Assembly (NCBI GenBank): GCA_016926395.1
Contig: JAFGOT010000038.1
Location: 1 to 22,663 of the forward strand
Direction of reading: 5' to 3'
Origin: Candidatus Woesearchaeota archaeon
Lineage (GTDB): Archaea > Nanobdellota > Nanobdellia > Woesearchaeales > SKGA01
DNA length: 22,663 bases
Each line of letters opens with the position of its first letter. Position 1 is the first letter of the stretch. The notes under the pieces were generated by a model that was given only the letters and a program-made list of their open reading frames with translations, searched no databases and was not told the origin of the DNA. Position numbers and translations under genes: made by a program. Below, one piece after another: positions 5,593 through 22,663 of the stretch.

Positions 5593-6826
5593 TTAATTTT
5601 CTTCAGGTGTTTTCTTTAATGGCATTCTTTTACCAAAAAGCATTTTCGAAAATATTATTACTGGTAAAAATATGAAAAAACCGTATAATAAGAATATTTT
5701 TACTCCAAGGATTCCAAGTAAAAAACCTCCTAATGCAAAACTTATTGTTATGGTTATTCTTGAAATAGAGCTATAGCTTCCAACAACTTTTCCTTCAATG
5801 TTGTTCGCCTCTGCAATGTCTGACATATATGACCACATTGAGATATTAAATAATGATCCGCCTACTGCTTTAACAAACAGCGCAACTAATATTATTTCAT
5901 ATGTTGGTGCTAAAAACAGTCCAAATAGGCCTATTGACGAGATTGTTAGTCCTATTGCTATTGTTCTTCTCTTGCCAATTTTATCTGCTACTTGTCCTGC
6001 GAATAATTGAAGAATGTGTGCTGCACCCATCATAAAGACAGCTACACTTAATTGTGCATTTGTTAGTCCCATTTTTTCTATTATAACAAAAGGAATAACT
6101 AAAATCATAAGGGGTGTTGTGATGTTTGCTAAAGCCCCAATAAATGCTAATTTTCTAAGCTTTGGATATGATAACATTTCTTTTACATCGGTAAATGGAT
6201 TAAGATCTTTTTTTCTTAATTTGTCTTTTTTTTCTGTGCGGTCTATTATCGTCATAAAATATTGTGTCAAATAGAAGTAATCCAAGCATTATTACAACAA
6301 TAACTACTAATGCTATGCTAAATACAGCTGTGTATCCATAATAATCTGCAATAAAACCTCCAATTAGTGGTGCTGTTATTGCTGAAACTGAAAGTATTGA
6401 TTGAAAAATGCCATTTATTCTTGATCTTTTAGAGCTGTCTTCTATAGTATCATTAACTCTTGATATTGCTGTGACTGTAACTGCATTGAATGCTATTGCT
6501 GAAATTATTCTAATTGCAAACAGGTATGGTGTTGATTTAATTGTTATGTATCCTATCAAAGCTATTGTTTCCAAAAATAAACCGAGTATTATTACTTTAT
6601 ATCTTCCAATTTTATCTGATATTGTTCCCATTATTGGGGCTGCAAAAATTCCAATGAATGCGAATAATGAGAAAAAATATCCTTTTAGTGCTTCAGACCA
6701 ACCTAGTGTTGAAAAGTATGGTGATAAAAAAGAAAGATACATATAAATTACAAAGTAAAGCAAAGCATCAAGGGCTGTTGTTTTCACAAATTTGTTAAAT
6801 AAAAAGTGGTCTTTGTAATAGCTCAT
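5593..6826 (-). pseudogene. MFS transporter split by a 1-nt frameshift (or a homopolymer sequencing error)
   Basis: N-half ORF 6200-6826 has motif A (GTISDKIGRYKV); C-half ORF 5593-6285 has GQVADKIGKRR. Removing one base from the T8 run at 6226-6233 joins them (…PHRKKDKLRKKDLNPF…) into one 410-aa, 12-TM-sized protein. Confidence 0.85.
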
Positions 6827-7911: not shown

Positions 7912-8508
7912 TTAATTTTCATTTATTGTTTTGATTGCTTTTGCACACGTCATACATTCAAAATTTTTAACATCTTCAAATGATTTTATTTCTTTCTGGC
8001 TTAATGTTTCGAGCATATTATTTAGAATTCCATGTGTTGCTTGAACATCACTCATTGCTCGGTGTGCGTTTTCATTAATTAATCCGTAATATTCACAAAT
8101 CATCCCTAATCTTTTGGATGGAAGATCGCTGTGTATTCTTCTTGCTAGTTTCATCGTACAGAGGGTGTCGTTTGTTAATAGAAAATTTTCATGTCTCCAA
8201 AAATTTTCTTGTAAGAAATTATAATCAAAAGAAATGTTGTGTCCTACTATTAAGCTATTTCCAATAAATTGTTTTAATGAAGGTAAAACTTCTTTGATTT
8301 TTGGCTGATCTCTAACCATATCGTTCGTTATTCCTGTTAGTTTTGTTATAAATCTTGGAATTGGCGTTTCAGGATTTACTAGTGTTTGAAACTCATCCAC
8401 AATTTCGTTATTAAGAATTTTTACTGCTGCAATTTCAGTTATTTTGTGTCTGTGTGGGCTTAAACCCGTTGTTTCCAAGTCAATGATGATTATTGGTCTT
8501 TCACGCAT
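7912..8508 (-). CDS. DEDDh 3'-5' exonuclease (DnaQ/Pol III epsilon-like)
   Basis: ExoI DLETTG, ExoII GHNISFDYNFL, ExoIII AHRAMSDVQAT. Confidence 0.9.
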   Translation of the reverse strand: MRERPIIIIDLETTGLSPHRHKITEIAAVKILNNEIVDEFQTLVNPETPIPRFITKLTGITNDMVRDQPKIKEVLPSLKQFIGNSLIVGHNISFDYNFLQENFWRHENFLLTNDTLCTMKLARRIHSDLPSKRLGMICEYYGLINENAHRAMSDVQATHGILNNMLETLSQKEIKSFEDVKNFECMTCAKAIKTINEN

Positions 8509-8541: not shown

Positions 8542-9390
8542 TTATTGTATTCTTTCTATTGTTCTTAAATCTTCAATCCTTTTTTTAGCATCTACACTTC
8601 CTGAAAATAGGTGCCAGAATACTTTAATTATCCAATCTAGCCATAAATCATCTAATATGTCGTAGAATATGAATAGATTTTTTTTATTCGTTTTATCGGC
8701 AAAATGATTTGCTCTTGTTTCTTTAAACCGAACAATATTGTTGTCTATTACAAATGCTCTAAATGGTTGATTTCGATGTCTTATCTCGATAGCTTCTCTT
8801 TTTGAATAATCATTTATTGCGAGAGTTTCTTCTATTTGTTTTATGTTGTTTATTTCAACTGAAGCAATAACTTTGATGCTTATTCCTTTATCTGCTAGTT
8901 CTTCAAAAATTTTTCTTAGCCTTGTTTTACCTTGTTTAGCTTGACTCCATGAAAAATCTCCTGAAAAAATAAGAACTTGTTTTTTTGCGCTCCTAAGAAG
9001 CGAAACTAAATCTTGTTTTAGAGTTATTTTATATTCTTCTTGTTCCTCAAGAAATGCTCTTCTTTTGTCTTTATCTACATATTGATATATGTCGAATGGA
9101 GAAAGATCATTTTTTTCTTTTGCTAGTTCTATTTGTTTTAAAAGTTGTTCTTGAAACGTGTTGGATGTGATTTGTTTAACGCTCTGATGATAGACTATTT
9201 TTAGAGCTCCTCTTGTTCCTTCTCTGAATATTCTTGTCTGAATGCTACCATCTTCTTTTGATATTTTATCAACATATGAGTCTGCTGTTCGCCAATTCTT
9301 TTTAATGTGGTTTGCTATTTCTTGAATGCTTCTTGGCTTTATAGCGACATAAGTTATTATTTTTCTTGTTGTTTTCGAATCTAGAACCAC
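8542..9390 (-). CDS. Putative transcriptional regulator, N-terminal wHTH plus TrmB/PLD-like effector domain
   Basis: N-terminal RSIQEIANHIKKNWRTADSYVDKI HTH-like segment. The C-terminal VLIFSG…ISIKVIA…FRAFVIDNNIV segment resembles TrmB-type effector domains by eye. GTG start. Confidence 0.5.
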   Translation of the reverse strand: MVLDSKTTRKIITYVAIKPRSIQEIANHIKKNWRTADSYVDKISKEDGSIQTRIFREGTRGALKIVYHQSVKQITSNTFQEQLLKQIELAKEKNDLSPFDIYQYVDKDKRRAFLEEQEEYKITLKQDLVSLLRSAKKQVLIFSGDFSWSQAKQGKTRLRKIFEELADKGISIKVIASVEINNIKQIEETLAINDYSKREAIEIRHRNQPFRAFVIDNNIVRFKETRANHFADKTNKKNLFIFYDILDDLWLDWIIKVFWHLFSGSVDAKKRIEDLRTIERIQ

Positions 9391-9522
9391 TTTGCTTATT
9401 TTATCTATCTTCTGATTTAAAAATTTTTGTAAAAATACAACACTAATACATTTTTATCATCAGAAATTATGAAATAAACTACAAGTCTATGTAAATAACA
9501 TACTTTATAGTGTGAGGTTTTA

Positions 9523-10116
9523 ATGATGGAAATAAAGAATGTAAAAGTATATGATCTAGAAGAAAGTATCAAAGCTTCTTCTTATCCTATGTCTATAGGT
9601 AATACTCCCGAGGAAGTTTCTTTTTCGGATTTGATGGATTGTGATTTTAAAAGAGCTAGTAAATTAGGTTCTGTAAGGTCTGGTTCTGGGCATGATAATT
9701 TTCTAAAGGGAATTGTTGTTAATTTTGACATTTCAGCTCCTCAGTACTGGTGGCCTCAGTTTCAAAGATATCATTTTGCTGATATTGTTTCCAGTCAGAG
9801 TAAAATGCATCGTTTAACTAAAATGGACTTGGATGCGCAGTATAATGAATGGGTTCTTCCTGAAGCTAAACTTATTGTTAAAGACTTAATTTCTGAATAT
9901 GATCAAAATCCTTCTAAAGATAATTTTCAAAGACTGGTTAGTAATGTGCCTATGGGTCTAAATTTATCTGCCAGGATTACAACTAATTATTTGCAACTAA
10001 AAGGGATTCATTCTCAACGTAGAAGTCACAAACTTAATGAGTGGCAATACTTTTGTGATTGGGTAGAAACATTGCCTTATTTCACTGATTTCGTAAAAGC
10101 TGTTGGAGGTAAATGA
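9523..10116 (+). CDS. Divergent ThyX-fold (flavin-dependent thymidylate synthase-like) protein
   Basis: SGHDNFL; APQYWWPQFQRYH aligns with ThyX APIFVARQ-xx-RHR; TTNYLQLKGIHSQRRSHKLNEW aligns with ThyX T-x-N-xxx-L…R..SH…E. ATGA overlap with tmk. Confidence 0.6.
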   Translation: MMEIKNVKVYDLEESIKASSYPMSIGNTPEEVSFSDLMDCDFKRASKLGSVRSGSGHDNFLKGIVVNFDISAPQYWWPQFQRYHFADIVSSQSKMHRLTKMDLDAQYNEWVLPEAKLIVKDLISEYDQNPSKDNFQRLVSNVPMGLNLSARITTNYLQLKGIHSQRRSHKLNEWQYFCDWVETLPYFTDFVKAVGGK

Positions 10117-10784
10117 AAATGGTTTTTGTAGTTATAGATGGTATTGATGGAACTGGAAAAGGAACACAATCCCTAATGCTTATGAAACGTCTTATTGCCG
10201 AGGGTTATTCTGTGAAACTCATGGATTTTCCAAGACATTCTAATCCTTCAGCTTATTTTGTTGATGCGTATTTGAATGGAGAATTTTCTGATAAGGCAGA
10301 AGATGTTCATCCCAAAACAGCTTCCTTGTTTTATGCACTTGATAGATTTGCAGCTAAGAAAGAAATGGTTAGTCATTTATCTTCTGGTGGTATAATTATT
10401 TCAAATCGTTATGTCTCATCTAATAAAGGTCATCAACTTGGAAAGATTAAAGATTCTACTGGGCGTGATGAATTTCTTTATTGGCTTGATGACTTGGAGT
10501 ATGGTATTTTAGGTCTTCCTCGCGAAGATGTTAATATTCTTCTAAACGCAAGTCCTAAAGTTTCACAAATAAATGTTGATAAAAAATCTACTCGATCTTA
10601 TACTTCCAAAAAGAGGGATTTGCATGAGTTTGATTTAGAACATTTAGCGAGTGCTCGTGAAGCTTATTCTTATGTTGCACAAAAAGAGAATTGGCATGTT
10701 ATTGATTGTGCTCCCAAACATGTGATGAGGCCGGTTGAAGACATTCATGAAGAAATATACTCTATTGTTAAGCCTTTGATTTAG
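10113..10784 (+). CDS. tmk: Thymidylate kinase
   Basis: P-loop DGIDGTGKGTQ, DFPRH, LFYALDRF, NRYVSSN (DRY-equivalent). Confidence 0.9.
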   Translation: MKMVFVVIDGIDGTGKGTQSLMLMKRLIAEGYSVKLMDFPRHSNPSAYFVDAYLNGEFSDKAEDVHPKTASLFYALDRFAAKKEMVSHLSSGGIIISNRYVSSNKGHQLGKIKDSTGRDEFLYWLDDLEYGILGLPREDVNILLNASPKVSQINVDKKSTRSYTSKKRDLHEFDLEHLASAREAYSYVAQKENWHVIDCAPKHVMRPVEDIHEEIYSIVKPLI

Positions 10785-10847
10785 CTTTTGTTTTTTTATT
10801 TTTTCATACCATAACTTTTAAATACTCTTTTCCTTGTAATATTGTTT

Positions 10848-12224
10848 ATGAGATATACAAAAATTGTTGCAACCATTGGTCCTGCATGCGATACTAAAAT
10901 TGATCAACTAATTAAACACGGTGTGGATGTAGCTCGTTTGAATTTTTCTCATGGTAATTATGATTATTTTAAAAAAGTAATTAAGCAAATTAGGAATGTT
11001 AACTCTTTAATTCCTATTCTTCTTGATACTAAAGGGCCTGAAGTTAGAATTGGAGATATTAAGCCTACTCAAATTGAGAAGAATTCTTTTGTTAATCTTG
11101 TTCCTTTTGGTGCTAAACTTGATCTTGGTTCCATTCCTCTTTCATATACTAACTTATCTGCTGATGTGAAGAAAGGAGACAAATTGATGATTGATGATGG
11201 AAAATTAATTCTTAGAGTTGAACGTTTTGATGGAAAAACTGTTGTTTGTAAAGCTCTTGATTCTCACGTTCTTCTTCCAAGAAAATCTGTTGATGTTTTA
11301 GGAGGAAGTGTTAGTCTTCCCGATTTAACACTTCAAGACAAAAAAGACATTTCCTTTGGTGTTAAACAAGGAGTTGATATTATTGCAGTCTCTTTAGTGC
11401 GTAATGCGAAAACAATAACGCAAGTTAGAAAACTTGCTCCAAAACAATTTATTGTTGCAAAAATTGAACATCCTGAAGCTGTTAAAAACTTTGATGCGAT
11501 TTTATCTGTTTCTGATGGTATTATGATTGCAAGAGGAGATTTAGGTTTAACTGTTCCGACCGAAAAAGTTCCAACTCTTCAAAAAAAAATGATTGACAAG
11601 TGCAATTTAGCAGGAAAGCCTGTTATTGTCGCAACTCAAATGCTTGATTCAATGACTACAGAACCTATTCCTACGCGTGCCGAAGCTAGTGATGTTGCAA
11701 ATGCAGTTTTTGATGGTGTTGATGCTTTAATGCTTAGTGGTGAGACTGCTAGCGGTGATTATCCTATTGAATCTGTTAAGATGATGGAAAAAATTGCTCA
11801 TGAAGCTGATGCGCATTTAAAAGAAAAATCTGTTCATATTCATAAATCAAAAGAAACAATGGTTGAGAGTATGTGTGTTCTGATAACTGAAGCTGCTCAT
11901 GAGATGAATGTTAAAGCTATTATTACTCCGACGGTGACTGGATACACTTCTCGTCTTTTGGCAAAATATCGTCCTAAAATACCTATTGTGGGCATAACTA
12001 GAAATTTAGTCGTTGGTCGAACTTTAAATCTTTCAAAAGGCGTTCGTAGTTTTGTAATAAATAAACCAACTGCTCATTCTCAAATTAAAGAATGTATTGA
12101 TGAGATTGTTGATTTACATAATCTTAAAAAATCTGATCTTGTTATTGTGGCTTATAATAACAGTCAAAATGTTTCTGGCACTACTAATGTTTTTGAAATT
12201 CGAGAAGTTAAAGAGTTGATGTAA
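10848..12224 (+). CDS. pyk: Pyruvate kinase
   Basis: TKIVATIGPA, ARLNFSHG, DTKGPEVR, AKIE, IMIARGDLG, ATQMLDSM, MLSGETASG. ATG 10848 preferred over TTG 10842. Confidence 0.97.
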   Translation: MRYTKIVATIGPACDTKIDQLIKHGVDVARLNFSHGNYDYFKKVIKQIRNVNSLIPILLDTKGPEVRIGDIKPTQIEKNSFVNLVPFGAKLDLGSIPLSYTNLSADVKKGDKLMIDDGKLILRVERFDGKTVVCKALDSHVLLPRKSVDVLGGSVSLPDLTLQDKKDISFGVKQGVDIIAVSLVRNAKTITQVRKLAPKQFIVAKIEHPEAVKNFDAILSVSDGIMIARGDLGLTVPTEKVPTLQKKMIDKCNLAGKPVIVATQMLDSMTTEPIPTRAEASDVANAVFDGVDALMLSGETASGDYPIESVKMMEKIAHEADAHLKEKSVHIHKSKETMVESMCVLITEAAHEMNVKAIITPTVTGYTSRLLAKYRPKIPIVGITRNLVVGRTLNLSKGVRSFVINKPTAHSQIKECIDEIVDLHNLKKSDLVIVAYNNSQNVSGTTNVFEIREVKELM

Positions 12225-12262
12225 TTCGTTTTATTCGTGTTTTTCTTATTTTTATAGAAATA

Positions 12263-12303
12263 TTTATAAATCAATAATGTTTATCTATTGATAATAATTC
12301 CTA
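12263..12303 (+). promoter_or_regulatory. perR promoter: TATA box with overlapping Fur/Per-box-like operator
   Basis: TTTATAAA 12263-12270; inverted repeat ATCAATA-N9-TATTGAT 12270-12292; TGATAAT-A-ATTCCTA 12289-12303 matches 11/14 of the 7-1-7 Fur box. Confidence 0.5.
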
Positions 12304-12316
12304 TTAAGTGATTTTC

Positions 12317-12694
12317 ATGGTTGACAAACGCCTAACAATTCAGAAAATAAAAATTCTTGAATATTTACATAGTGTTCATTCTCATCCAACTGCTGATGTT
12401 GTTTATGAAGCGGTAAAAAAACACATTCCAAACATTTCGTTAGCTACTGTTTACAGGAATTTAAACCAGATGGTTGATTCCGGTGATGTTCTGCGTTTGG
12501 AAATAAATGGGGAGTATCATTTTGATGGTGATGTTTCAAAACATCTACATTGTTACTGCTCTAGATGTGGTAAATTGGTTGATGTTTTTAATAAAAAAAT
12601 AACTGACTATGCAATAAAAAATGTTGACCTGCCAGGGTTTGAAGTATCTAACGTTCAAGTCCTATTCAAAGGTTTGTGTACAAAGTGTAGTTAA
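12317..12694 (+). CDS. perR: Fur-family repressor, PerR type
   Basis: HPTADVVY, SLATVYRNL, HFD…KHLHCYCSRCGKLVD and C-terminal CTKC. Residues equivalent to B. subtilis PerR ligands H37/D85/H91/H93/D104 are present. Directly upstream of ahpC. Confidence 0.8.
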   Translation: MVDKRLTIQKIKILEYLHSVHSHPTADVVYEAVKKHIPNISLATVYRNLNQMVDSGDVLRLEINGEYHFDGDVSKHLHCYCSRCGKLVDVFNKKITDYAIKNVDLPGFEVSNVQVLFKGLCTKCS

Positions 12695-12710
12695 TGTGAG
12701 GTAATATAAG

Positions 12711-13271
12711 ATGAAAATAAATAGTGAAGCTCCAGATTTTGAAGCTGAAAGTTTTGTAGATGATCAAATTAAAAAAATAAGTTTGTCTGACTATCAAGGT
12801 AAGTGGGTTGTATTATTTTTCTACCCTGCAGATTTTACATTTGTATGTCCAACCGAACTTGGAGAACTAGCAGATCATTATGATGAATTCAAAAAGCTAA
12901 ACACTGAAATTCTTTCTGTTAGTACTGATACTGCTTTTGTTCATAAAGCATGGCATGATAATTCAGAAACAATTGCTAAGATTAAGTTTCCTATGATTGC
13001 AGATCCAACAAGAAAGATTTGTACTGAATATGGTACTTTAATTGAAGAAGAAGGATTATCTTTAAGAGCAACAATTTTGATTAATCCTGAAGGAAAAGTT
13101 AAAGCTTTCGAATTCCATGATAATAGTATTGGACGAAGCATTGAAGAATTATTAAGAAAAATTCAAGCTGCACAATATGTTGAAGAACATGGTGGAGAAG
13201 TTTGTCCAATGAATTGGAAGCCTGGAGAAAAGACTCTAAAACCAGGACTTGACTTAGTTGGTAAAATATAG
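12711..13271 (+). CDS. ahpC: Typical 2-Cys peroxiredoxin (AhpC)
   Basis: FFYPADFTFVCPTEL (peroxidatic Cys) and GEVCPMNWKPG (resolving Cys). Confidence 0.96.
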   Translation: MKINSEAPDFEAESFVDDQIKKISLSDYQGKWVVLFFYPADFTFVCPTELGELADHYDEFKKLNTEILSVSTDTAFVHKAWHDNSETIAKIKFPMIADPTRKICTEYGTLIEEEGLSLRATILINPEGKVKAFEFHDNSIGRSIEELLRKIQAAQYVEEHGGEVCPMNWKPGEKTLKPGLDLVGKI

Positions 13272-13309
13272 GCAACTAATAAATCAATCTAACCAAAAAC
13301 CACATAACT

Positions 13310-13352
13310 GGTACCCAAGGAAAGATTCGTTCTATCTTGGGTGCCTTTTTTT
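13310..13352 (+). terminator. GC-rich hairpin followed by T7 (intrinsic-terminator-like)
   Basis: GGTACCCAAG (13310-13319) pairs with CTTGGGTGCC (13336-13345; one G-U pair), immediately followed by TTTTTTT. Confidence 0.7.
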
Positions 13353-13361
13353 AATTCTAAA

Positions 13362-13979
13362 ATGGACTTGATAGCTAAGGTAAATGAACTTAAAGGTTCT
13401 TCAGTTTCTAAAATTGTAGATTCAAAAATAAAATCTTTTAGTAATCTTGGCAAGAAAGGAAATGAGGCGTGGTTTTCTGAACTTTGTTTTTGTATTTTAA
13501 CTTCTAATTCTAAAGCACAAACGGCAATCAATATTCAAAATGAATTGGGTTATGTTGGCTTTGCAACTTTTACCAAAGAACAACTTAGTGAATCAATAAG
13601 ACGAAATAAACATCGTTTTCATAATAATAAATCTGATTTTATAATTTTGGCAAGAGAATATATTGATATCAAATCACGTCTAAAAAAAGAAAGAGATCCT
13701 CGTGCTTGGCTTGTAAGAAATATTAAAGGAATTGCTTGGAAAGAAAGTAGCCCCTTTCTTAGAAATGTGGGTTATACAGATTATGCTATTCTTGATAGAC
13801 ACATAATTAATCTTCTTCATGAAATGGGTTACTTAAAAGAAAAGCCTAAAACTCTAAATGAAAAAACTTATCTTAAGATAGAATTGGTTTTTAAGAAACT
13901 TGCTTCTGACTTAAACTTAAACTGTTCAGAATTAGATCTTTATATGTGGAATATTAAAACTGGAACCATTTTGAAATAA
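13362..13979 (+). CDS. ogg: 8-oxoguanine DNA glycosylase/AP lyase (archaeal Ogg2, MJ0724 type)
   Basis: FSELCFCILT, RFHNNK, LVRNIKGI.WKE.S.FLRNVG, AILDRHI, LDLYMW and the family's C-terminal Lys (…TGTILK). ATG 13362 preferred. Confidence 0.9.
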   Translation: MDLIAKVNELKGSSVSKIVDSKIKSFSNLGKKGNEAWFSELCFCILTSNSKAQTAINIQNELGYVGFATFTKEQLSESIRRNKHRFHNNKSDFIILAREYIDIKSRLKKERDPRAWLVRNIKGIAWKESSPFLRNVGYTDYAILDRHIINLLHEMGYLKEKPKTLNEKTYLKIELVFKKLASDLNLNCSELDLYMWNIKTGTILK

Positions 13980-14441
13980 TTACATCAACCTATTCTTTTT
14001 ATGTTTGTAATGTAATGTTCCGCCAACAACTATTCCTGCAGATATAAGAACAAGATTCTTGAATATGTATTGTCCTTCCATTGATAATACAAATGGGAAT
14101 TTGACAAAAACTACTTGTGGTAGAAGAACTAATGGTAAAAATGTTCCTATCATTTGTGCAAATAATAATATTATTCCTATTGGGAGTGTTTTTCTAAATA
14201 ATAGTGTTATACCGATTATCACTTCCCACCAACCAACAATAAGTAGGAATGTATGTGGAGAGAACCAGAATGCTGTTGCATAAACCAAATCTGCTGCAGG
14301 GCTAAGACCAAGCGGTTTTAATATCCCAAACCAGAAAAAAACTATTGCAAGAGAGATTCTTAAAAATAATAGACCATGATTATCCATCCAAGTTTCTATT
14401 TTAGATTCAATATTTTGGATGGTTTTCTTGTTCATATTCAA
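13980..14441 (-). CDS. DoxX-family membrane protein (RclC/YkgB-like)
   Basis: LRISLAIVFFWFGILK, EVIIGITLL, GTFLPL, GQYIFKNLVL; four hydrophobic segments. Confidence 0.8.
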   Translation of the reverse strand: MNMNKKTIQNIESKIETWMDNHGLLFLRISLAIVFFWFGILKPLGLSPAADLVYATAFWFSPHTFLLIVGWWEVIIGITLLFRKTLPIGIILLFAQMIGTFLPLVLLPQVVFVKFPFVLSMEGQYIFKNLVLISAGIVVGGTLHYKHKKNRLM

Positions 14442-14482
14442 ATTATTATTTTTTTAGTTTATAAAAATTGTCTTTATATGTT

Positions 14483-16060
14483 TCAAATTCTTGATTCAAG
14501 ATTTAGTCTATAGCTTTTATTATATTTTAATTCTTTTTTTATTTGGGTGTTTTCATCCATTATTTTTTGAACTCTTCTTGTTATTGCCCAGACGTGGTTT
14601 GCAGATTCAAATGGTATTGGAATTTTAATTGTACTTGTTTTTTTTAGTGGCATTTCTGCGTTTGTTGGAATGTACTTGTTCATTATTGAATCATAACTTG
14701 TTTTACCTTGTTTTGTTATGAGTTCTGAAGTATATTTTGGACCCCAATTATATGCTAGTAATGCTAATTTTTCATCTTCAAATTTGTTAAGTAAATAATC
14801 CCAATAAATAATTCCTGCTTTTATATTTTCTTTTGTCGACTCATCTGTATCGCCCAGTGCTAATTCTTTATCTATTGGCAAGATTTTTGAGTATCTTGTT
14901 CCAAATATTGTTGTATCTGATAAATTATTATTCATCCAATCAATTGTGTTTGGCATTAATTGCATAATTCCTTTAGCACCTGATTCTGATATTATTGTAT
15001 TATTTTTTCTTTTTTGTAAATATCTTGATTCTTGATATGCTTTTGAAAGTATATATGCTATTGTTCTAGAACTATCAACTTCAAAACCTTTATTTATCAT
15101 TTCTTTTAAAACAATATCTGCAAGAACAATGTTTTTACTTCTCTCTTCGAGTTGTGGCCAATTTTTATTTGCCAAATCGAGTATATATGAATTTACTATT
15201 CCATCATAGTTTAATATTTTTTTATCTTCTAAAATTATTTCTATATTTTCTTTATTTCTTGTGGTTACTCCTGAGCTAGTTTGTTGAGGTACCATCTCCA
15301 ATCCTAGCATTAAAGTAACAGTTGCAATTGCGGCTTTTTGAACAGGGGTTAATCTTCTTATTTTTTCATCTTCAAATATTACTGTTGGATCTAATTTGTT
15401 GTTATTTTCATCTAATCCTAAATTTATTAGTTCTAACATGAATCCAGAATTAACATAATTTTTATCAAGTGTCGTGGTAGATATTCTATGTTGAAATTTT
15501 TTTGAAACTTTTTCTGCAGTTTCTGTTAGTTTTTTATATTTAATACTTTGATTTGAGTTTTGAAACTTATCTTGTACAAATCTTAGAACTTCGTATTTAT
15601 TGACATGTGTTGAATCCCAAATTCCTATGATTATTGATGTGTTAAGTAGTGACCCTAAATAAACCGCCTCATATGCTCTTGATTTTGAACGTATTTCAGG
15701 GTGTATTTGTTTATTTAGCGTTGCTTCTAGTGCTAATCGATGTTTTGTTGCAAAGTTTAATGATTTTTGTTGTTTATTTAATTTATTAATTTCTTTTTTG
15801 TATTGTTTAGCAGCTTTAAGTATTATTGACTCGAACTGTTTTATTGATTTTTTACTTTCTGGAAGTTGATTAAGAATTGTATCTGCCAAGCTTTCCAAAC
15901 TACTTGCTTTGTATTGGTTATTTTTAAATATTAATGCTCCTCTTCTAAAGAAAAATTCTCTAAGAATATCATATTCTCTACCATACTCTTTTTCCAATAT
16001 TTCTTTAGCACTTTTTACTTCTTCTTCATTTAAAAGTGTTTGAAGTGTGGATTGTTTCAT
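14483..16060 (-). CDS. Lytic transglycosylase (GH23/SLT domain) with large uncharacterised N-terminal region
   Basis: Motif I AYQES (catalytic Glu), motif II SESGAKGIMQLMPNT, motif III NIKAGIIYWDYLL…LALLAYNWGP; short hydrophobic segment AAIATVTLMLGL near the middle. Confidence 0.85.
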   Translation of the reverse strand: MKQSTLQTLLNEEEVKSAKEILEKEYGREYDILREFFFRRGALIFKNNQYKASSLESLADTILNQLPESKKSIKQFESIILKAAKQYKKEINKLNKQQKSLNFATKHRLALEATLNKQIHPEIRSKSRAYEAVYLGSLLNTSIIIGIWDSTHVNKYEVLRFVQDKFQNSNQSIKYKKLTETAEKVSKKFQHRISTTTLDKNYVNSGFMLELINLGLDENNNKLDPTVIFEDEKIRRLTPVQKAAIATVTLMLGLEMVPQQTSSGVTTRNKENIEIILEDKKILNYDGIVNSYILDLANKNWPQLEERSKNIVLADIVLKEMINKGFEVDSSRTIAYILSKAYQESRYLQKRKNNTIISESGAKGIMQLMPNTIDWMNNNLSDTTIFGTRYSKILPIDKELALGDTDESTKENIKAGIIYWDYLLNKFEDEKLALLAYNWGPKYTSELITKQGKTSYDSIMNKYIPTNAEMPLKKTSTIKIPIPFESANHVWAITRRVQKIMDENTQIKKELKYNKSYRLNLESRI

Positions 16061-16171
16061 CAGAACCCAAAATATGTTTAAAATAATAAATATTATGTTT
16101 TCTTTTTATAAATCGCTTTTATTTATTTAAAAGCAGAAGCTTTTTATTCTGTTGTGTTTTTTTCACCAACT

Positions 16172-16462
16172 ATGTCTGATTTACCTGTTATTAACTCAAA
16201 AATCTCTCAATCCATTATTGACAGAGAGTTTCTAATAATTGAAAATGTTCCTTTTTGTCTTTGTCCTATTGAGCACTGTTCTTATCTTTATTTCGGAACA
16301 GGAAAAGGTCAAAAACCATATGGCTGTTCTTCTTGCAAATTAAAATATTGGTGTGATTATGATAAATCTCAAGATTTAGAAATTGTTTCTTTGACTGATT
16401 GTGACCCTGATTTATTAAAATTCTTGGAGGAAAGAGATGAAAATATTAATGATTGGTTTTAA
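16172..16462 (+). CDS. Small Cys-rich protein with CxxCxxxxxC motif (SPASM-like Fe-S domain candidate)
   Basis: 7 Cys; IENVPFC … KPYGCSSCKLKYWC. Overlaps the radical SAM start by 26 bp and contains its GGAGG SD. Confidence 0.6.
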   Translation: MSDLPVINSKISQSIIDREFLIIENVPFCLCPIEHCSYLYFGTGKGQKPYGCSSCKLKYWCDYDKSQDLEIVSLTDCDPDLLKFLEERDENINDWF

Positions 16463-17594
16463 TATTCAAACTTCTATTTTTCCACTAGGCTTGAATTATC
16501 TTAAATCTTATGCTAAAAAGTTTCATCCAGATATTAATTTTAAAATTCAAGAGTTTGCTTTTGGTAATAAATTAAATCATGATATTAATAAGAATTTAGA
16601 GCTTCAAGTTATCAGTTATATTTTGGTTGAAAAACCTGATGCTGTTTGTTTTAGTACTTATATTTGGAGCGCAGAGTTAGTTAGAACTATTTGTTTGTCC
16701 TTAAAGAAAATATCTTCTATAAAAATAATTCTTGGAGGTCCTGAAATTGATAATTCCTACTTTGATTTCGCAGATTACTTAGTTATTGGTGATGGTGAAG
16801 AAAAGTTTGTAGACGTTCTTGACAACCTAACAAATTCTAAAACAAACCATTCTTTGGTAAATTTAGATGATATTCCTTTTCCATATAGATTTCACGAAGG
16901 ACCAAAAGACTATGCTGCAATTCGTATAGAAACCGCTCGTGGTTGTCCTTTTACTTGTGCTTACTGTAATTATGCATCTCGTGCTTATAAAGAATTTTCA
17001 TTATTATATCTTGAAGAGAATATTAAATACCTTTTTGAGAATTATACTTTTAGAAACTTAACAATTTTGGATGCTAATTTCAATCTTAAGAAGAATAGGA
17101 TGAAAGACGTGCTAGGTATTATATCTAGATATTCAAAAGATCACAAAATTAATTTTGAACTAAAACCTGAGTTGATAGATGAGGATGTTATTAAAATAAT
17201 TAAAGACTCAAAATTAAACATTTTCTGTGAGCTTGGTCTGCAATCAATATCTGAGAGTGTGTTGCATGACACAACTCGATCATATGATTTGGAGAAAGTA
17301 AAAAATGGTCTTGATTTACTAAATAAAAATAATATTCCTTACAAAATAGATTTAATGTATGGTCTTCCCAAAGATAACTTTTTTAGATTCTTAAGAACTA
17401 TTAATTTCATAAAAAAATATTCTAGACAAAAAGGAGTTCCAGCTCATCATTACATGTTGCTTAATAATACTTCTAATTCTAATTGTGTTCGTATGTTTGA
17501 AAATAATAGCAGCATGGTTATCAAAACAGACACGCAAGATGTTTTAGATTTGTATAAACAAAAATTGTTTATTGATTTAATTAATAAAAAATAA
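16437..17594 (+). CDS. Cobalamin-binding radical SAM protein (class B methyltransferase-like)
   Basis: N-terminal B12-binding motifs PLGLNYL, FSTYIW, LGGPE, GDGE; RGCPFTCAYC cluster motif; DANF, ELGLQS, DLMYGLP. Confidence 0.9.
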   Translation: MKILMIGFNIQTSIFPLGLNYLKSYAKKFHPDINFKIQEFAFGNKLNHDINKNLELQVISYILVEKPDAVCFSTYIWSAELVRTICLSLKKISSIKIILGGPEIDNSYFDFADYLVIGDGEEKFVDVLDNLTNSKTNHSLVNLDDIPFPYRFHEGPKDYAAIRIETARGCPFTCAYCNYASRAYKEFSLLYLEENIKYLFENYTFRNLTILDANFNLKKNRMKDVLGIISRYSKDHKINFELKPELIDEDVIKIIKDSKLNIFCELGLQSISESVLHDTTRSYDLEKVKNGLDLLNKNNIPYKIDLMYGLPKDNFFRFLRTINFIKKYSRQKGVPAHHYMLLNNTSNSNCVRMFENNSSMVIKTDTQDVLDLYKQKLFIDLINKK

Positions 17595-17597
17595 TTT

Positions 17598-18986
17598 TTA
17601 TTTCTTCTTTGTTATTTTTTTTACTGTGTTTTCGATAAATGCCATGCTACTAGTTGCGCTACTTACTGCAAATCCTAATGGTCTATGAACTAAAATTTCG
17701 TAAAATAATCTTCTATCTTCTACTTTTTCATGGTTTTGTATTTCTTTGACTTTCGGCGTTGCTGTTATTGCAATTATTAGTCTTAGTATTCCTGATGTTG
17801 TTATTACTATTATTAATGCTGTGAGTATGTTGGTTTGCTTTGTTAGTATCATAACTGAAAAACTTCCTATTAAACCACCTAATAATATTAAAAAATTAAA
17901 TATCACATTATAATATGCAAACAATTTTACTCTTCGCTTTGGACTTGAGGCATCTAACATATAATTAAATGTAGTTAGTTCCATCCCTGCCCACGAAAAT
18001 CCACTGGTCATTTCAATAATTAAGATTGCGATGAATAAAGTGTTATTTTTAAAAAGCAATGTTGCAATCAACCAATTAATAGGTATTATGCCGATTAATA
18101 TTGCCGTTACTCTTAGTATATTTTTATTTCCAAAATGATGACTAAGTCTTCCCCAATAAGTCATTGTCAGTGCTTTAATTATCATTGGTGCTAGAACAAT
18201 TACGCTAAACTGCAAATATGTAAAATTAAAAACCTTCAACATTAATACAGCAAAAAATGGGGATGCAATCATCACTGCAAATGATAGTGATGAACGAAAA
18301 ATAACAAATCTTCCAAACGCATTTTTTCTCAGTTCTAAAACAAAATCTTTAAAACCGTTGTTACTAAATATTTCGCTTTGATACGTTGGCTCTTTGTGTT
18401 TAAAAAAAAGAATGAATGATATGAATCGACCTATAAATGCCATTAAAAATAGTATTCCAAATCCGACCCAGATATTATCTTCTAAAAAATTAAGTATTAA
18501 TCCACTAATTAAAACTGATGAGAACAAAAATATTATTGTTATTCTGTTTCTTAAACTGAAATATTTGCTTCTTTCATTCATTGGTATTACATCACCTAGC
18601 CATGAACTCCATGCAGGAGCTGCGATGTTTCCAAATGAAAGATATATTGTGAAAATTATTGCTAATACCCAAAAGTTTTTTGTTATGACGGGTAGAATAA
18701 ATAATGGTATGAATGTTAATGCTTGCAATAAAACGAATGTTAAAACTATTCTTTTTCTATTTTCATACTTGTCTGTAATCTTAGCACTCAGTAGTTGAAA
18801 TAATGATCCTAAAAATGAAGGTATTGAGGAAAGTAATCCTATTTGTCCGCTACTAGCTCCCAATCTAAGTGCAAACGGAACAACATACTGTTCTCCAAAT
18901 CCAAGCATTAAGCTAGCAGCAGAACCTTCTGCTATTGATGCTTTTTTAGTTTGGTCAATTTCCTTATGGTTTAGTTCATTTTTCAA
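17598..18986 (-). CDS. MFS transporter
   Basis: About 12 hydrophobic segments, GASSGQIGLLSSIP, ITDKYENRKR and WGRLSHHFGNK loops. The TTG start is supported by CTTATAAA 25 nt upstream (19011-19018, minus strand). Confidence 0.85.
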   Translation of the reverse strand: MKNELNHKEIDQTKKASIAEGSAASLMLGFGEQYVVPFALRLGASSGQIGLLSSIPSFLGSLFQLLSAKITDKYENRKRIVLTFVLLQALTFIPLFILPVITKNFWVLAIIFTIYLSFGNIAAPAWSSWLGDVIPMNERSKYFSLRNRITIIFLFSSVLISGLILNFLEDNIWVGFGILFLMAFIGRFISFILFFKHKEPTYQSEIFSNNGFKDFVLELRKNAFGRFVIFRSSLSFAVMIASPFFAVLMLKVFNFTYLQFSVIVLAPMIIKALTMTYWGRLSHHFGNKNILRVTAILIGIIPINWLIATLLFKNNTLFIAILIIEMTSGFSWAGMELTTFNYMLDASSPKRRVKLFAYYNVIFNFLILLGGLIGSFSVMILTKQTNILTALIIVITTSGILRLIIAITATPKVKEIQNHEKVEDRRLFYEILVHRPLGFAVSSATSSMAFIENTVKKITKKK

Positions 18987-19089
18987 GAAGCAATCGGTGA
19001 AAATATTTTGTTTATAAGCTTATTCTTTTCGTGTTATTTTCGATTTTTGCATCTAAATTTATTTTAAATGATTTTGTTAATTTAATTTT

Positions 19090-19191
19090 ATGTTCTTTCA
19101 ACTAATTTTAGCTGTGGTTCTGGGTATTCTCTCAGGGGTTTTTACAGGCTTCTTGAACTCAATGTGCGAGTTTTTTCTTGTGTTTGTGTAA
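19090..19191 (+). pseudogene. 5' fragment of a TctA-like (archaeal tripartite tricarboxylate transporter permease-type) membrane-protein gene, truncated
   Basis: Not in the ORF track. MFFQLILAVVLGILSGVFTG resembles the N-terminus of archaeal TctA-family proteins, which continue L-x-PG-x-H-x-N; here it runs into unrelated sequence and stops at codon 34. TTTTAAAT at 19062-19069 sits at promoter distance. Confidence 0.55.
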
Positions 19192-19421
19192 ACCGCTAAT
19201 CGATTGATATTATGCGGTTTTTAGGCGTTTTTCTGTATTTTGGGGTTGGAGGCTAATAAGATGCGAGAAAACCCGACACACGCCTTTTTTCAAAGGCTAA
19301 AAGGTATATTTTTTTGTAGTGAGCATTATTCACTGCCAGTTTTTTCTTTTTTTGTATTGCAAAGTCCGACGTTTTGTTTTTGTTTATCGGAGCCTATTGT
19401 TTTAGTATGGGGGCAAAGAAA

Positions 19422-19892
19422 ATGAGTTACGATCGTCTTGGGCAAACTAAAGTTAGATCTAACGGTCGTAAGATTTCTATTTTTGATAAAGTCAATGATA
19501 TCAAGGCAGATCTTAAGGAAATTATTCCTGAAGTTAAGGATGAACAGCTCATTCAATTATTTAGTAAAGTTAGAAGTTATTACCTTAACAAGAAAAAAGG
19601 TGTGCCTTTAGGTAGAAGAAGCAACATTAAGGGAGTAAGGCCATTAACTGAGATTGAAGAATTATTATTCAATTATTTAATGAGAAATAACCTTAATCCC
19701 GGAACAACTTATCGATGGTTCATTGCAACAAGACTTCCGCCCGATATTAAAGATCGTTTAGCAAGGGGCTTGATTAATCAGAAAGTTGCAATGCATATTA
19801 GTGCTAATAGGCGAAGAACAAAGAATAGTGTTGAAGGACTAATTATGATGGAGGAAATTAGAACCATCATTCAAAAACTTGATTGGAAGTGA
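19422..19892 (+). CDS. Putative DNA-binding protein with ParB/KorB-like HTH-adjacent motif
   Basis: PGTTYRWFIATRLPPDIKDRLARGLINQKVA resembles the ParB/Spo0J L-P-x-x-I-x-x-x-L-x-x-G-x-I-x-x-x-x-A segment; no recognisable ParB N-terminal CTPase motif. GGGGG SD-like sequence before ATG 19422 (alternative start 19407). Confidence 0.5.
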   Translation: MSYDRLGQTKVRSNGRKISIFDKVNDIKADLKEIIPEVKDEQLIQLFSKVRSYYLNKKKGVPLGRRSNIKGVRPLTEIEELLFNYLMRNNLNPGTTYRWFIATRLPPDIKDRLARGLINQKVAMHISANRRRTKNSVEGLIMMEEIRTIIQKLDWK

Positions 19893-19897
19893 ATAAA

Positions 19898-20986
19898 ATG
19901 GAACCAGAATTTAACTCATCAACAAACGCCCTTATTGAAGAGATTAATATTTTACTTTCAAAAAAGCGTTTGTTTCAAAAGGAAATTTATGAGAACTTGA
20001 TAGCTCAAGGAATGATGAAGCCTAACACTGAAAAAGAATTTAAGAAACTTTACGAGTGGGCTATTAGTCAGAAACTTATTGATCAAACAAAAGTTCGTAA
20101 TTGGAATAAGAAGAAAGGAAAACTTCCCCACTATTTTACTAAAGCACAACTCATCAAAATATTTGATGCTATTGATAGGCCAAAAGATGGTATTGCTTGT
20201 TTCTTAGCATTAATGTGTGGTTTGCGAGTAAGGGAAGTTTGTTGGCTTAAAATTAAGGACATTGATTTTGAGGATCAAAAGATTTTCATACGTAACAGTA
20301 AGAATCCTAACAGAAGCAGACAAGGTTATGGTAAAGATCGTATCGTTCGCTTCGATAAAGCAATTGAAGGTGCTTTAAGAAAATGGATTGACATAATAGG
20401 AGATAGTAGTGAATGGTTTTTACCTTCAGATAAAAGTCCTGACACGCATCTTAGGCCTAAGAGTTTACACGAACGATTTAGAAGTTACTTAAAACAATCA
20501 AACTTGTTAGAAGTAGATTACGTACTAAACATTCGACAAAGAGTTAATGGAGAATACAGAGATAAAAAAGTTCACAGACACAAATTCTACTTTCACTGCT
20601 TAAGACATACAATGGCTTCAATAATCTACAATAAGACAGGAGATATTTACGCAGTAAAAGAATTCTTAGGACACGAACAAGTAGACACAACAACAGTCTA
20701 CGCAAAAATGACAGAAAGCAAAATGAGGGGAGTAATAGCATCAGTATTTAGCAGTCTACACTACAACTACTCAAACGGCGAACACCACCCTCTACCACAA
20801 AGAATAGTTCCAGGAGTAAAATCACAACCAGTAGTACAAACAGAAGCAAACAGCCCAATGCAACTACTAGAAATTCAATTCGTAAACGGAGACATAGGAG
20901 AAGTAGAATTCCTAAGAAAAAAACAAATCCTAGAATCAAACAGCATAACAAGAACAATTGAATTAAAAGGAGATTTTCAAACATGA
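19898..20986 (+). CDS. Tyrosine recombinase/integrase with C-terminal SHOCT-like tail
   Basis: CGLRVRE (Arg I), FHCLRH (HxxR), LGHE and TTVYA (Tyr nucleophile); tail LLEIQFVNGDIGEVEFLRKKQIL. ATG 19898 preferred over TTG 19883. Confidence 0.92.
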   Translation: MEPEFNSSTNALIEEINILLSKKRLFQKEIYENLIAQGMMKPNTEKEFKKLYEWAISQKLIDQTKVRNWNKKKGKLPHYFTKAQLIKIFDAIDRPKDGIACFLALMCGLRVREVCWLKIKDIDFEDQKIFIRNSKNPNRSRQGYGKDRIVRFDKAIEGALRKWIDIIGDSSEWFLPSDKSPDTHLRPKSLHERFRSYLKQSNLLEVDYVLNIRQRVNGEYRDKKVHRHKFYFHCLRHTMASIIYNKTGDIYAVKEFLGHEQVDTTTVYAKMTESKMRGVIASVFSSLHYNYSNGEHHPLPQRIVPGVKSQPVVQTEANSPMQLLEIQFVNGDIGEVEFLRKKQILESNSITRTIELKGDFQT

Positions 20987-21159
20987 AAACACACAAAATA
21001 CTAAGGGTAACAGTAACCAAAGAACAATACGATAGCATACAACAAAAAGCATCATATTATGGATTCACAACAATGAGCGCATTCATAAGAGATGCATTGT
21101 TAAAAGATATTTACTATCAAAGATTATTAAGAGAGATTCACGAGAAGATTTGCAAATAA
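20983..21159 (+). CDS. Small ribbon-helix-helix-like protein (RHH-A), 58 aa
   Basis: Not in the ORF track. MKTHKILRVTVTKEQYDSIQQKASYYGFTTMSAFIRDALLKDIYYQRLLREIHEKICK. GGAGA SD and ATGA overlap with the integrase stop; beta-strand, helix, G, MSxFIR pattern. Confidence 0.8.
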   Translation: MKTHKILRVTVTKEQYDSIQQKASYYGFTTMSAFIRDALLKDIYYQRLLREIHEKICK

Positions 21160-21338
21160 TTAACCTGACAAGTCTTTTCATGAATTTCTTTTATTAATTC
21201 TAAACCATACAAATCACCAAGACAAGAATCCCTAACAAGATCACTCATAGACCTATAACCAAGAGCATTCATCTTGCTTTGCAATAAGTCAAACTCTTCC
21301 TTAGTCAAACAAAAAGCAATAACCTTAGTTTCAGTCAT
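21138..21338 (-). CDS. Small ribbon-helix-helix-like protein (RHH-B), paralog of RHH-A
   Basis: Ungapped alignment to RHH-A gives 23/58 identities by hand count (TKE, MS..RD, EIHEK.C). Confidence 0.8.
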   Translation of the reverse strand: MTETKVIAFCLTKEEFDLLQSKMNALGYRSMSDLVRDSCLGDLYGLELIKEIHEKTCQVNYLQIFS

Positions 21339-21396
21339 GATGATATTAAGTTTAACATTTTAGAAAATAAAAAGTCGGAGAGAGTAATACATTTTT

Positions 21397-22134
21397 TTAA
21401 TTTAAGAAATCAATCGTTAGTGTAATTGGGTCTATTGCTATTTTTTCTTCTTTTTCTATGTTTGAGTCATCTCCTAAGAAGTATCCGTTTGCTCCATCCC
21501 CAACAATACAATCCATATCGTCGAAAATGTAATAATCAATTCCGTTGTAATATTCATCCCAAGTTGTATCATACAATAAATCGGCAACGTATTGATTTGT
21601 AGATTCGACATCAAGTCCACAAACTAAAGAATAAGCATGATCTTTTGTTAGAACAAGTTTAGTTTCAATACCAACGTTTTCAAGTAAGCTGTTATACAGA
21701 ATTGTTAAGTCTTCACAATCTCCACCACCAACTTCTAAAGTATCATGTGGTGATTGAATAAGTTCAACGCCTCTTGGATCACTAATATATTCATAATTCA
21801 TAACAACATAATCAAATATTTCTACAGCTCGACATTCATCATCAGAACAACCTTCACTTATCTCAGCAGCTAAGACTCGCAAATCGTGATTGTCTGTAAT
21901 TATTGCATCTAAGTATGGTTTTGTATCTGCTAAAACTTCTTCTTCATCGTATTCAACATAAACTGGTTCAGACTTTTCTTCGACAATAGTTGTAGTTTCT
22001 TCATGAGTGCTTGTTTGTTGTTGAGTGTTTATTTCTTGAGTTGGCTGAATATTGTTAATTGGTTCTTCAGAATAATTTGAACATCCTGTTAGAATTAATG
22101 AAAGAACCAAAATTGCTAAGAACATATATTTCAT
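21397..22134 (-). CDS. Transglutaminase-like (Cys protease fold) lipoprotein
   Basis: Lipobox LILTGC, low-complexity Q/T/E linker, YEYISDP…QSPHDTL…GGGDCEDLTILYNSLLENVGI…DHAY. Confidence 0.8.
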   Translation of the reverse strand: MKYMFLAILVLSLILTGCSNYSEEPINNIQPTQEINTQQQTSTHEETTTIVEEKSEPVYVEYDEEEVLADTKPYLDAIITDNHDLRVLAAEISEGCSDDECRAVEIFDYVVMNYEYISDPRGVELIQSPHDTLEVGGGDCEDLTILYNSLLENVGIETKLVLTKDHAYSLVCGLDVESTNQYVADLLYDTTWDEYYNGIDYYIFDDMDCIVGDGANGYFLGDDSNIEKEEKIAIDPITLTIDFLN

Positions 22135-22170
22135 AATAGTTTTTTGAATTTATTCATTTAAATTTTTTGT

Positions 22171-22200
22171 GTTACCGCAGGGGTTACCGTTTTTGTTACC
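22171..22200. repeat. Three GTTACC direct repeats at exact 12-bp period
   Basis: GTTACC at 22171, 22183 and 22195, in the divergent intergenic region between the transglutaminase gene and the RHH-C/RHH-D pair. Confidence 0.75.
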
Positions 22201-22260
22201 TTTTTTGTGTATTTTTTTGTAGCCTAAGCTTACTTCTCTTATGACGACCTTACAATTATT

Positions 22261-22383
22261 ATGGTTAAGACAAAAGTGCTTGTTATTAGGATATCTGAAG
22301 ATCAGGATAAATTGTTAACTCAGTTATCCCGAGAGCACTTCGTTAAGAAATCAGAGTATGTCAGGTTAAAATTATTTAGGTGA
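22261..22383 (+). CDS. Small RHH/CopG-like protein (RHH-C), 40 aa
   Basis: Not in the ORF track. MVKTKVLVIRISEDQDKLLTQLSREHFVKKSEYVRLKLFR: alternating beta-strand, helix, S-E-Y-V-R helix. Its stop overlaps the AGGTGA SD of the next gene. Confidence 0.65.
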   Translation: MVKTKVLVIRISEDQDKLLTQLSREHFVKKSEYVRLKLFR

Positions 22384-22389
22384 TATTCA

Positions 22390-22599
22390 ATGGAAGAAGA
22401 TTTCAGTATGCTTAGAAGTGAGAGAAGAAGTTTTTTCTGTCCTAATACTTTATGGGCAGAGTTAGAACGTGAAACTAAAGACGATATTAGTATTTCGACG
22501 TATATTCGTTTAGCCATTGTAGAAAAGTTGATCAGCGATCATCCTGATCGTGAAGAGTACTTCAAAGATTTGATTTCCGGAAGATTTCCGAGAAATTAA
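22390..22599 (+). CDS. Small RHH-like protein (RHH-D), 69 aa
   Basis: RRSFFCPNTLWAELERETKDDISISTYIRLAIVEKL fits the strand-helix-helix RHH pattern; AGGTGA SD 6 nt upstream. Confidence 0.6.
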   Translation: MEEDFSMLRSERRSFFCPNTLWAELERETKDDISISTYIRLAIVEKLISDHPDREEYFKDLISGRFPRN

Positions 22600-22663
22600 C
22601 AGTACTATTTATATATGAAGACAACTTTACTACTGATAAGGTATTACAAAATGACTAGCGTCC

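Follow-up and report, generated by a model that had tools for sequence, protein, structure and literature searches.

The skin element in sigK and phi10403S in comK are inserted in protein-coding genes that stay inactive until the element is excised. By contrast, the dusA-specific integrase islands (DAIs) of Proteobacteria integrate into dusA at its 5' end, substitute island sequence for this end, keep a promoter and leave the original remnant behind (Farrugia et al. 2015, PMC4482086). These islands encode a tyrosine integrase whose target is a conserved position in the 5' end of a gene for a protein, and carry a variable cargo that includes defense and metal genes (PMC4482086). In a survey of 68 elements integrated in genomes of Thaumarchaeota, 39 were located in tRNA genes, 15 in intergenic regions and 14 in 3'-distal parts of genes that encode proteins (Krupovic et al. 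2019, PMC6563490). Finally, the SSV-type integrases are site-specific tyrosine integrases of archaeal plasmids and viruses, with the attP located inside the int gene, such that int is split upon integration (PMC7253208).

The window analyzed here is the entire 22,663-bp contig C6 of a metagenome-assembled genome (MAG) of a Candidatus Woesearchaeota archaeon (G000; about 1.02 Mb in 40 contigs, 32% G+C, 82.5% complete). It contains, as modelled below, what is very probably the attL junction of an integrative element of a DPANN (Woese- or Pacearchaeota-type) archaeon that targets the tctA gene and repairs it. Like the skin element and phi10403S, the element interrupts a protein-coding gene and has a stub on one side, but it differs from them in that the tctA element family rebuilds the gene on integration. 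The dusA islands are the closest analogue, through a likeness in mechanism only: as in these islands, an orphaned 5' fragment of the target gene (here, 19090-19149) is located at the integrase-proximal junction, whereas the host is a DPANN archaeon, the target is the membrane transporter gene tctA at codon 20/21, the promoter is of the archaeal TATA/BRE type, and the integrase is Xer-like and always paired with an upstream gene, which we denote orf172. The tctA elements resemble the integrated elements of the thaumarchaeal survey in the presence of a tyrosine recombinase, short direct att repeats and modular cargo as well as in the use of protein-coding targets, in some cases, and the occurrence of tandems, but a 5'-end target with promoter replacement is not reported in that survey (PMC6563490). 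Compared to the SSV-type integrases, the tctA elements differ in having an intact int gene and an attP that would lie 5' of orf172. No relevant paper emerged when the literature was searched for tctA as a target of integration, and a description of a tctA-targeting, gene-repairing family of archaeal elements was not found in the literature searched.

The left flank of the contig encodes, in this order, aIF2-gamma, a metallophosphoesterase, a beta-propeller protein, an MFS protein and RNase T; a thermosome-like subunit, recognized by eye and unscored, is encoded on another contig of the same genome, and there are no tRNA genes within the window. The flank is found in the same order and orientation in G003, and parts of it, compared over the portion present on the respective contigs, are found in G005 (MFS and RNase T), G008 (beta-propeller, MFS and RNase T) and G007 (RNase T). 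In the latter three genomes, an intact tctA gene lies 2.5-9 kb past the RNase T gene, with no integrase homologue in between, whereas the flank of the window, like that of G003, leads into a stub rather than an intact tctA. The loci of G005, G007 and G008 are empty sites, as expected for elements of the dusA-island type; a search for the empty site in relatives had been suggested in the first-pass annotation, a set of remarks made on the sequence alone.

The last gene before the stub encodes an MFS transporter (17598-18986, minus strand; Pfam MFS_1, E=3.5e-29) and belongs to a variable block of 10.5 kb between the RNase T gene (7912-8508) and the stub. The condition of the first-pass annotation that relatives should have a membrane-protein gene divergent from this MFS gene is moot; the MFS gene was not found in 13 genomes of the same genus, and was dropped as a synteny anchor in favor of the wider flank, the synteny of which holds. 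The block (8542-18986) also encodes a ThyX-like protein, Tmk, pyruvate kinase, Fur, a peroxiredoxin, Ogg, a DUF417 protein, an SLT transglycosylase and a B12-radical SAM protein, and occupies a different position in relatives, with the peroxiredoxin gene located 22-24 kb beyond tctA, on the other side, in G001 and G003. The region upstream of tctA is a hotspot for rearrangement and insertion. A separate irregularity is observed beside the RNase T gene, where the MFS gene of the flank is broken into two overlapping open reading frames (ORFs) of 230 and 208 aa (5593-6826, minus strand), both of which match a single intact gene of 411 aa in G003, which points to a frameshift, to a pseudogene or to an error of the assembly.

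The stub is contained in an ORF at 19090-19191 (plus strand) that reads MFFQLILAVVLGILSGVFTGFLNSMCEFFLVFV over 33 codons, from the ATG at 19090 to a stop at codon 34 (19189-19191), in full agreement with the first-pass description of an unlisted ORF with a TATA-like box that breaks near 19151 and stops at this codon. The ORF consists of two parts. The first 20 residues, MFFQLILAVVLGILSGVFTG (19090-19149, plus strand), align with the TctA N-terminus and would represent the chromosome-side half of attL; the rest (19152-19191, plus strand), ending in FLNSMCEFFLVFV, would be an element-derived tail translated out of context. The only TctA of the genome, encoded on contig C12, has the N-terminus MFLEILLAILLGVNAGTLTG-LIPGVHVNL, and all ten TctA proteins from the same genus start in the same way; the stub aligns with the N-termini of 11 TctA proteins of the genus and departs from the TctA pattern after residue 20. 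The continuation L-x-PG-x-H-x-N that had been predicted for the interrupted protein is found in the C12 TctA, which reads L-I-P-G-V-H-V-N. In a six-frame search of the whole 1.02-Mb genome, the pattern [AS]h..G h..G..TG had no matches other than the stub, the C12 tctA and a single unrelated site, and no PF01925 domain was detected in G000, which is 82.5% complete. Because of the match of 20 residues, the specificity of the motif and the absence of PF01925 from the genome, the stub, which on its own is too short for an HMM score, is assigned to the TctA N-terminus and appears to be the orphaned start of tctA; the TauE-like identity, initially considered as an alternative, can be abandoned.

The region immediately upstream of the stub (19040-19089, plus strand) aligns with the upstream regions of 11 tctA genes of the genus and corresponds to a remnant of the chromosomal tctA promoter region. 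A TATA-like A/T-rich stretch at approximately 19051-19068, 22-39 nt 5' of the ATG at 19090, aligns with the gaaacTTATAAat box that is conserved 5' of tctA in these 11 genes, and the operator-like and gaaacTTATAAat portions of the upstream region are more degenerate at the stub than in the 11 genes. The operator-like portion is a palindromic CCGGAAA(n)TTTCCGG-like motif that precedes the tctA TATA box by about 20 nt in 11 genomes of the genus (in the window, approximately 19020-19068); it is kept on the element-borne copies of tctA and may be an operator for some regulator. A scan of the window for sigma-70 promoters and terminators is uninformative for an archaeon.

The break itself is sharply defined. 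In a junction table that includes 13 tctA genes and 12 stub-like matches to the pattern, 11 of which are true stubs, the break falls, throughout the family, directly after ACAGG(C/T), that is, after Thr-Gly codons 19-20, and immediately before the most conserved motif of TctA, L-I/T-P-G-x-H-V-N. In the window, the sequence ACAGGCTT (19144-19151, plus strand) is the only stretch that exactly matches the start of the C12 tctA; the identity between the two stops at ACAGGCTT|C, precisely at the break proposed in the first-pass annotation, making this the probable strand-exchange (overlap) region. The sides of the junction in G000 are …GGGGTTTTTACAGGCTT on the left of the stub, CTTGAACTCAATG… on the element side to the right, and AATTCCCGGAGTTCAT… to the right of the core on C12, with TTTACAGGC as the candidate cleavage region. 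The tails of the stubs vary among the elements and mostly reach a stop within 0-13 codons. Downstream of the tail, the presumed non-coding left arm (P'; 19192-19373, plus strand) contains several T-runs and one hairpin followed by a T-run, and is overlapped by a mechanically listed short frame of 61 aa (19240-19425). No convincing arm-type repeats or inverted repeats of the core were found in the region 18950-22663.

The first gene to the right of the arm, orf172 (19374-19892, plus strand), the likely true start of which is the ATG at 19422 (MSYDRLG…), has homologues with 44-68% identity in 21 loci, always between the stub and the integrase gene. The family is strongly conserved, with the motifs YRWFIATRLP and ANRRR, and no match to Pfam, PHROG or NCBIfam was detected. 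The AlphaFold model of the protein (pLDDT 72.8, moderate confidence) is mostly helical; the Foldseek search of PDB with this model yielded no match at E<=0.001, with ParB, Noc and KorB appearing only at E>1, and the VIA-align matches were weak (Z<=6.1), mostly on the C-terminal helices, including the KorB DNA-binding domain at Z 4.7. Considering its fixed position, the orf172 product is likely to be a helical protein that binds DNA and acts as an accessory or directionality factor. A second, distant homologue of orf172 is encoded elsewhere in the same genome (C30:2463-2723, minus strand; E=6e-9), and many distant homologues with about 30% identity are scattered across the order, with no tctA stubs, and are probably parts of elements that have different targets.

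The 5' end of the next gene overlaps orf172 by 10 nt. This gene encodes an intact Xer-like tyrosine integrase of 367 aa (19883-20986, plus strand; PF00589, E=1.2e-22), in which the catalytic motifs of Pyrococcus abyssi XerA (4a8e) are matched, in the alignment, by the segments GLRVRE, HCLRHT, LGHEQ and TVYAK, such that the catalytic set is present; the enzyme is presumably active. Its association with a mobile module and a tctA stub in more than 20 genomes, together with a score of 115.9 bits that is far below the 220-bit cut-off of the NCBIfam XerA_Arch model (NF040815), identifies it as an element integrase rather than the housekeeping XerA. An integrase of the SSV type (type I) was rejected as well, given that int is a single, unsplit ORF located 730 nt from the junction. 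The remaining genes are a small gene for a 58-aa protein with a homologue in the G003 element (20983-21159, plus strand); a convergent small gene for a 66-aa NikA/RHH-like protein (21138-21338, minus strand; PF21983, E=3.3e-5, below the cut-off); and a gene for a transglutaminase-like cargo protein (21397-22134, minus strand; PF01841, E=1.2e-10) that is probably a lipoprotein, although its N-terminus shows only weak matches to lipoprotein models, with E-values of 5.8e-4 to 9e-3, far below the cut-offs. Further element DNA with small ORFs (22320-22517, minus strand, and 22390-22599, plus strand) extends from 22135 to 22663, where the contig ends inside the element, 3.5 kb in. Homology to related elements, at 65-70% identity, is confined to the region from 19402 to 20922, and there is no near-identical relative; to the left of 19085, nothing but the stub itself resembles the related elements.

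The association of the stub with orf172 and the integrase is not limited to this genome. When 400 genomes of the order were sampled, 58 proved to encode homologues of orf172, and a tctA stub is located directly 5' in 8 of the closest matches. An alignment-based scan of species-representative genomes, which partly overlap with these 8, identified 21 loci in MAGs of Woese-, Pace- and Nanoarchaeota. In 20 of these, the orf172 homologue is preceded, at a distance of 56-242 nt, by a tctA stub, each ending in …TG; a locus search with orf172 alone gave none. In G003, the stub (MFIQILLAIVLGVASGVFTG-FD followed by a stop) is 75% identical to that of the window at the DNA level, has the same position relative to the orf172 homologue (orf154, 54% identity) and is followed by the integrase gene (about 38% identity). 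An intact tctA of 403 aa lies 4.4 kb past this stub module, and a perfect direct repeat of 30 nt, cttggtgtggcttccggggtttttacaggc, is present at both ends. The stub and an intact tctA are found on one contig each also in G047 (15.6 kb) and G124 (24 kb). Taken with the synteny of the flank, these three elements and the 20 stub-bearing loci bear out the first-pass proposal of an attL in a protein-coding target, after codon 20 of a tctA-like gene.

The cargo of the tctA-targeting elements is modular. The 4.4-kb element of G003 carries almost nothing, and that of G047 encodes a primase-MCM fusion protein and a resolvase. The 24-kb tctA-integrated element of G124 (L066/L067; G124:C1:290950-314700) encodes a VirB4/TraG-like ATPase, a TFIIB homologue and a set of copper-resistance proteins, namely, a copper P-type ATPase, two multicopper oxidases and a DsbA-like protein; this DPANN element may be conjugative. 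The element of G000 carries RHH genes, the transglutaminase-like protein gene and, probably, a DISARM system (see below). Several contigs of this DPANN-type element family are deposited as 'uncultured Methanosarcinales archaeon' or 'Acidobacteriota bacterium'; these labels are probably wrong.

A more complex history is apparent in G001, a genome from the genus of the window, where two tctA stubs (G001:C26, L045; 1057-1095 and 1356-1394), 300 nt apart, are located 5' of a single orf172-int module. This arrangement, which indicates that stacking does occur, is a footprint of serial or tandem integration. Furthermore, the stubs of G001, G003, G047 and G332 have GGTGTGGCTTCCGGGGT…ACAGG in common, in several unrelated hosts, which complicates a simple assignment of sequences to host and element, and suggests that some of the 'host' stubs could be leftovers of the replacement ends of earlier elements.

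The rest of the gene, which had been predicted to lie beyond the element, shares a contig with the stub in G003, G047 and G124; in G000, it is on another contig, C12, and the link between the two would have to span an assembly gap. The C12 tctA is the single copy in this genome: it is full length (PF01970 positions 1-421 of 423, E=3.1e-47) and has a TATA box, and no second copy or 3' remainder was found in G000 by tblastn with the C12 TctA, the weak match on C15 (E=0.2) being an MFS protein. The 5' neighborhood of the C12 tctA lacks the RNase T flank and instead comprises genes for an N4/N6 DNA methyltransferase, DrmC, DrmB and DrmA (C12:17696-23547; L034:8697-14548), that is, the drmA, drmB, drmC and methyltransferase core of DISARM. 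The E-values of the PADLOC matches are 9e-198 for DrmA (over model positions 447-1221 only), 3e-85 for DrmB and 6e-22 for DrmC, and that of the methyltransferase is 1.5e-57; drmA is cut by the end of C12, and the first ~450 residues of DrmA are absent from the G000 bin. Because a defense island stands where the cargo of the element is expected, the most likely order is C6, gap, C12, with the intact tctA and the DISARM cargo at the far end of the element, which under this arrangement would be at least 9.6 kb long.

It is also possible, although less likely, that the C6 integrase element and the C12 DISARM island are two elements stacked at one site, or that the element in C6 is a relic that has lost its mobility; in either case, the C12 tctA would owe its 5' end to an element other than the one next to the stub. 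Compared to the 30 nt in G003, the exact identity between attL and the 5' end of the C12 tctA is only 8 bases (19 of 33 around the site), which suggests an old, tandem or decayed arrangement, and a blastn-short search with 19000-19450 against all G000 contigs produced only chance matches of up to 16 nt, so that the repeated core envisaged in the first-pass annotation is apparent in G003 but not in G000. The degenerate promoter of the stub and the twin stubs of G001 point in the same direction. Moreover, neither the right end of C6 nor the end of C12 overlaps with any other contig end, and with the two contigs unjoined and the 5' part of drmA missing, C12 could be part of a second element in tandem or come from a different strain in the population. 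Arguing against stacking or decay are the intact integrase and orf172 genes and the lack of a further stub in the assembled G000 genome. Either way, the stub remains an attL-type junction.

The comparison of G001 with G047, which belongs to a different family, shows which part of tctA is mobile. The 246 nt 5' of tctA are 96.7% identical between the two genomes and codons 1-20 are 98.3% identical (59 of 60 nt), whereas codons 21-390 show only 56% DNA identity and 45% protein identity; the integrase-side arms are 88% identical, starting from inside the stub. Given this break at codon 20/21, the promoter and the first 20 codons of tctA therefore travel with the element. In site-specific recombination, the DNA to the left of the core is chromosomal at attL and element-derived at attR. 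In every resolved case, attR includes a start codon, 20 tctA-like codons, the CCGGAAA…TTTCCGG motif and the gaaacTTATAAat box, and the conserved upstream region is the same as in uninterrupted tctA genes. An intact gene with a replacement 5' end and promoter is accordingly present at the far junction in G003, G047, G124 and G001 and, if C12 is the far end, also in G000.

These observations bear on the possibility, put forward in the first-pass annotation, that the element splits and inactivates tctA, such that excision would restore the transporter in a gene switch of the type known for skin in sigK and phi10403S in comK. A stub combined with a distant gene body is indeed what such switches look like, and the far end in G000 is on a contig other than that of the stub. 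However, intact tctA ORFs with a start codon and a TATA box lie beyond the elements of G003, G047 and G124, the only tctA of G000 is full length and has a promoter, and the replacement 5' end is element-borne. Because the element-borne promoter and codons 1-20 keep the gene intact, so that the target is not non-functional in the integrated state, an excision-controlled switch is highly improbable; tctA appears to stay whole while the element is integrated, rather than being switched off.

The least probable explanation, to which we assign hardly any weight, is that the stub and the orf172-int module are the attP of a non-integrated circle that was wrongly assembled or binned with the chromosome, for an attP of this kind (tctA-type promoter, 20 codons, core and orf172-int) would be indistinguishable from attL over some 300 nt and C6 stops 3.5 kb into the element, but the left flank is joined to the stub without interruption in one contig and, as far as RNase T, consists of chromosomal DNA with conserved synteny, integrated copies are proven in G003, G047 and G124, and the 5' half of the stub is unlike the C12 5' end, which makes a repeat-induced chimera unlikely.

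We therefore favor integration at attL with concomitant repair of tctA, for which the following scheme can be proposed. The Xer-like integrase, probably assisted by the orf172 protein, would catalyze recombination between a site of the circular element and the tctA gene of the chromosome at Thr-Gly codons 19-20 (ACAGGC). The attP would be located just downstream of an element-borne tctA-type promoter and tctA codons 1-20. Integration would strand the host promoter and the first 20 codons in the form of a short, dead-end ORF that precedes orf172-int, into which transcription from the host promoter could read through, whereas the element copy would be joined to codon 21 and onward at the far end, such that a complete, promoter-equipped tctA persists. 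Under this scheme, the expected attB consists of the left side of the stub, …GGGGTTTTTACAGGCTT, and the right side of C12, AATTCCCGGAGTTCAT…, and attP would combine the left side of C12 with CTTGAACTCAATG…, the exact positions of exchange being those suggested by the alignments.

A further-reaching, tentative extension of this scheme, which we regard as doubtful, is a promoter swap. The orf172-int module would always be located behind a tctA-type promoter, its own in the circular state and that of the host in the integrated state, and the host tctA would be expressed from the element promoter, with an element-derived N-terminal half-helix. With elements crossing families, stacking and replacing one another, the 5' ends of a core gene across DPANN lineages would be recycled element DNA, and the regulation of tctA in the host could control excision and integration.

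To our knowledge, the mobile elements of DPANN archaea are almost uncharacterized, and their attachment sites are largely unknown. The tctA-targeting family is widespread in MAGs of the Woese-, Pace- and Nanoarchaeota type, and its three-part signature (tctA stub, orf172 and Xer-like integrase), combined with an integration site defined at the base-pair level, makes it possible to delimit elements and their cargo in fragmented MAGs. This cargo ranges from DISARM defense genes and copper resistance to a VirB4/TraG-like ATPase and a replicase of the primase-MCM type. That hosts from different families contain near-identical element DNA is direct evidence of recent horizontal transfer. The family provides an archaeal example of 5'-end targeting with replacement of the promoter and the N-terminus, hitherto documented for the bacterial dusA islands. 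Should the promoter swap be true, the tctA promoter and the first 20 codons of this gene would be mobile-element DNA across many DPANN lineages.
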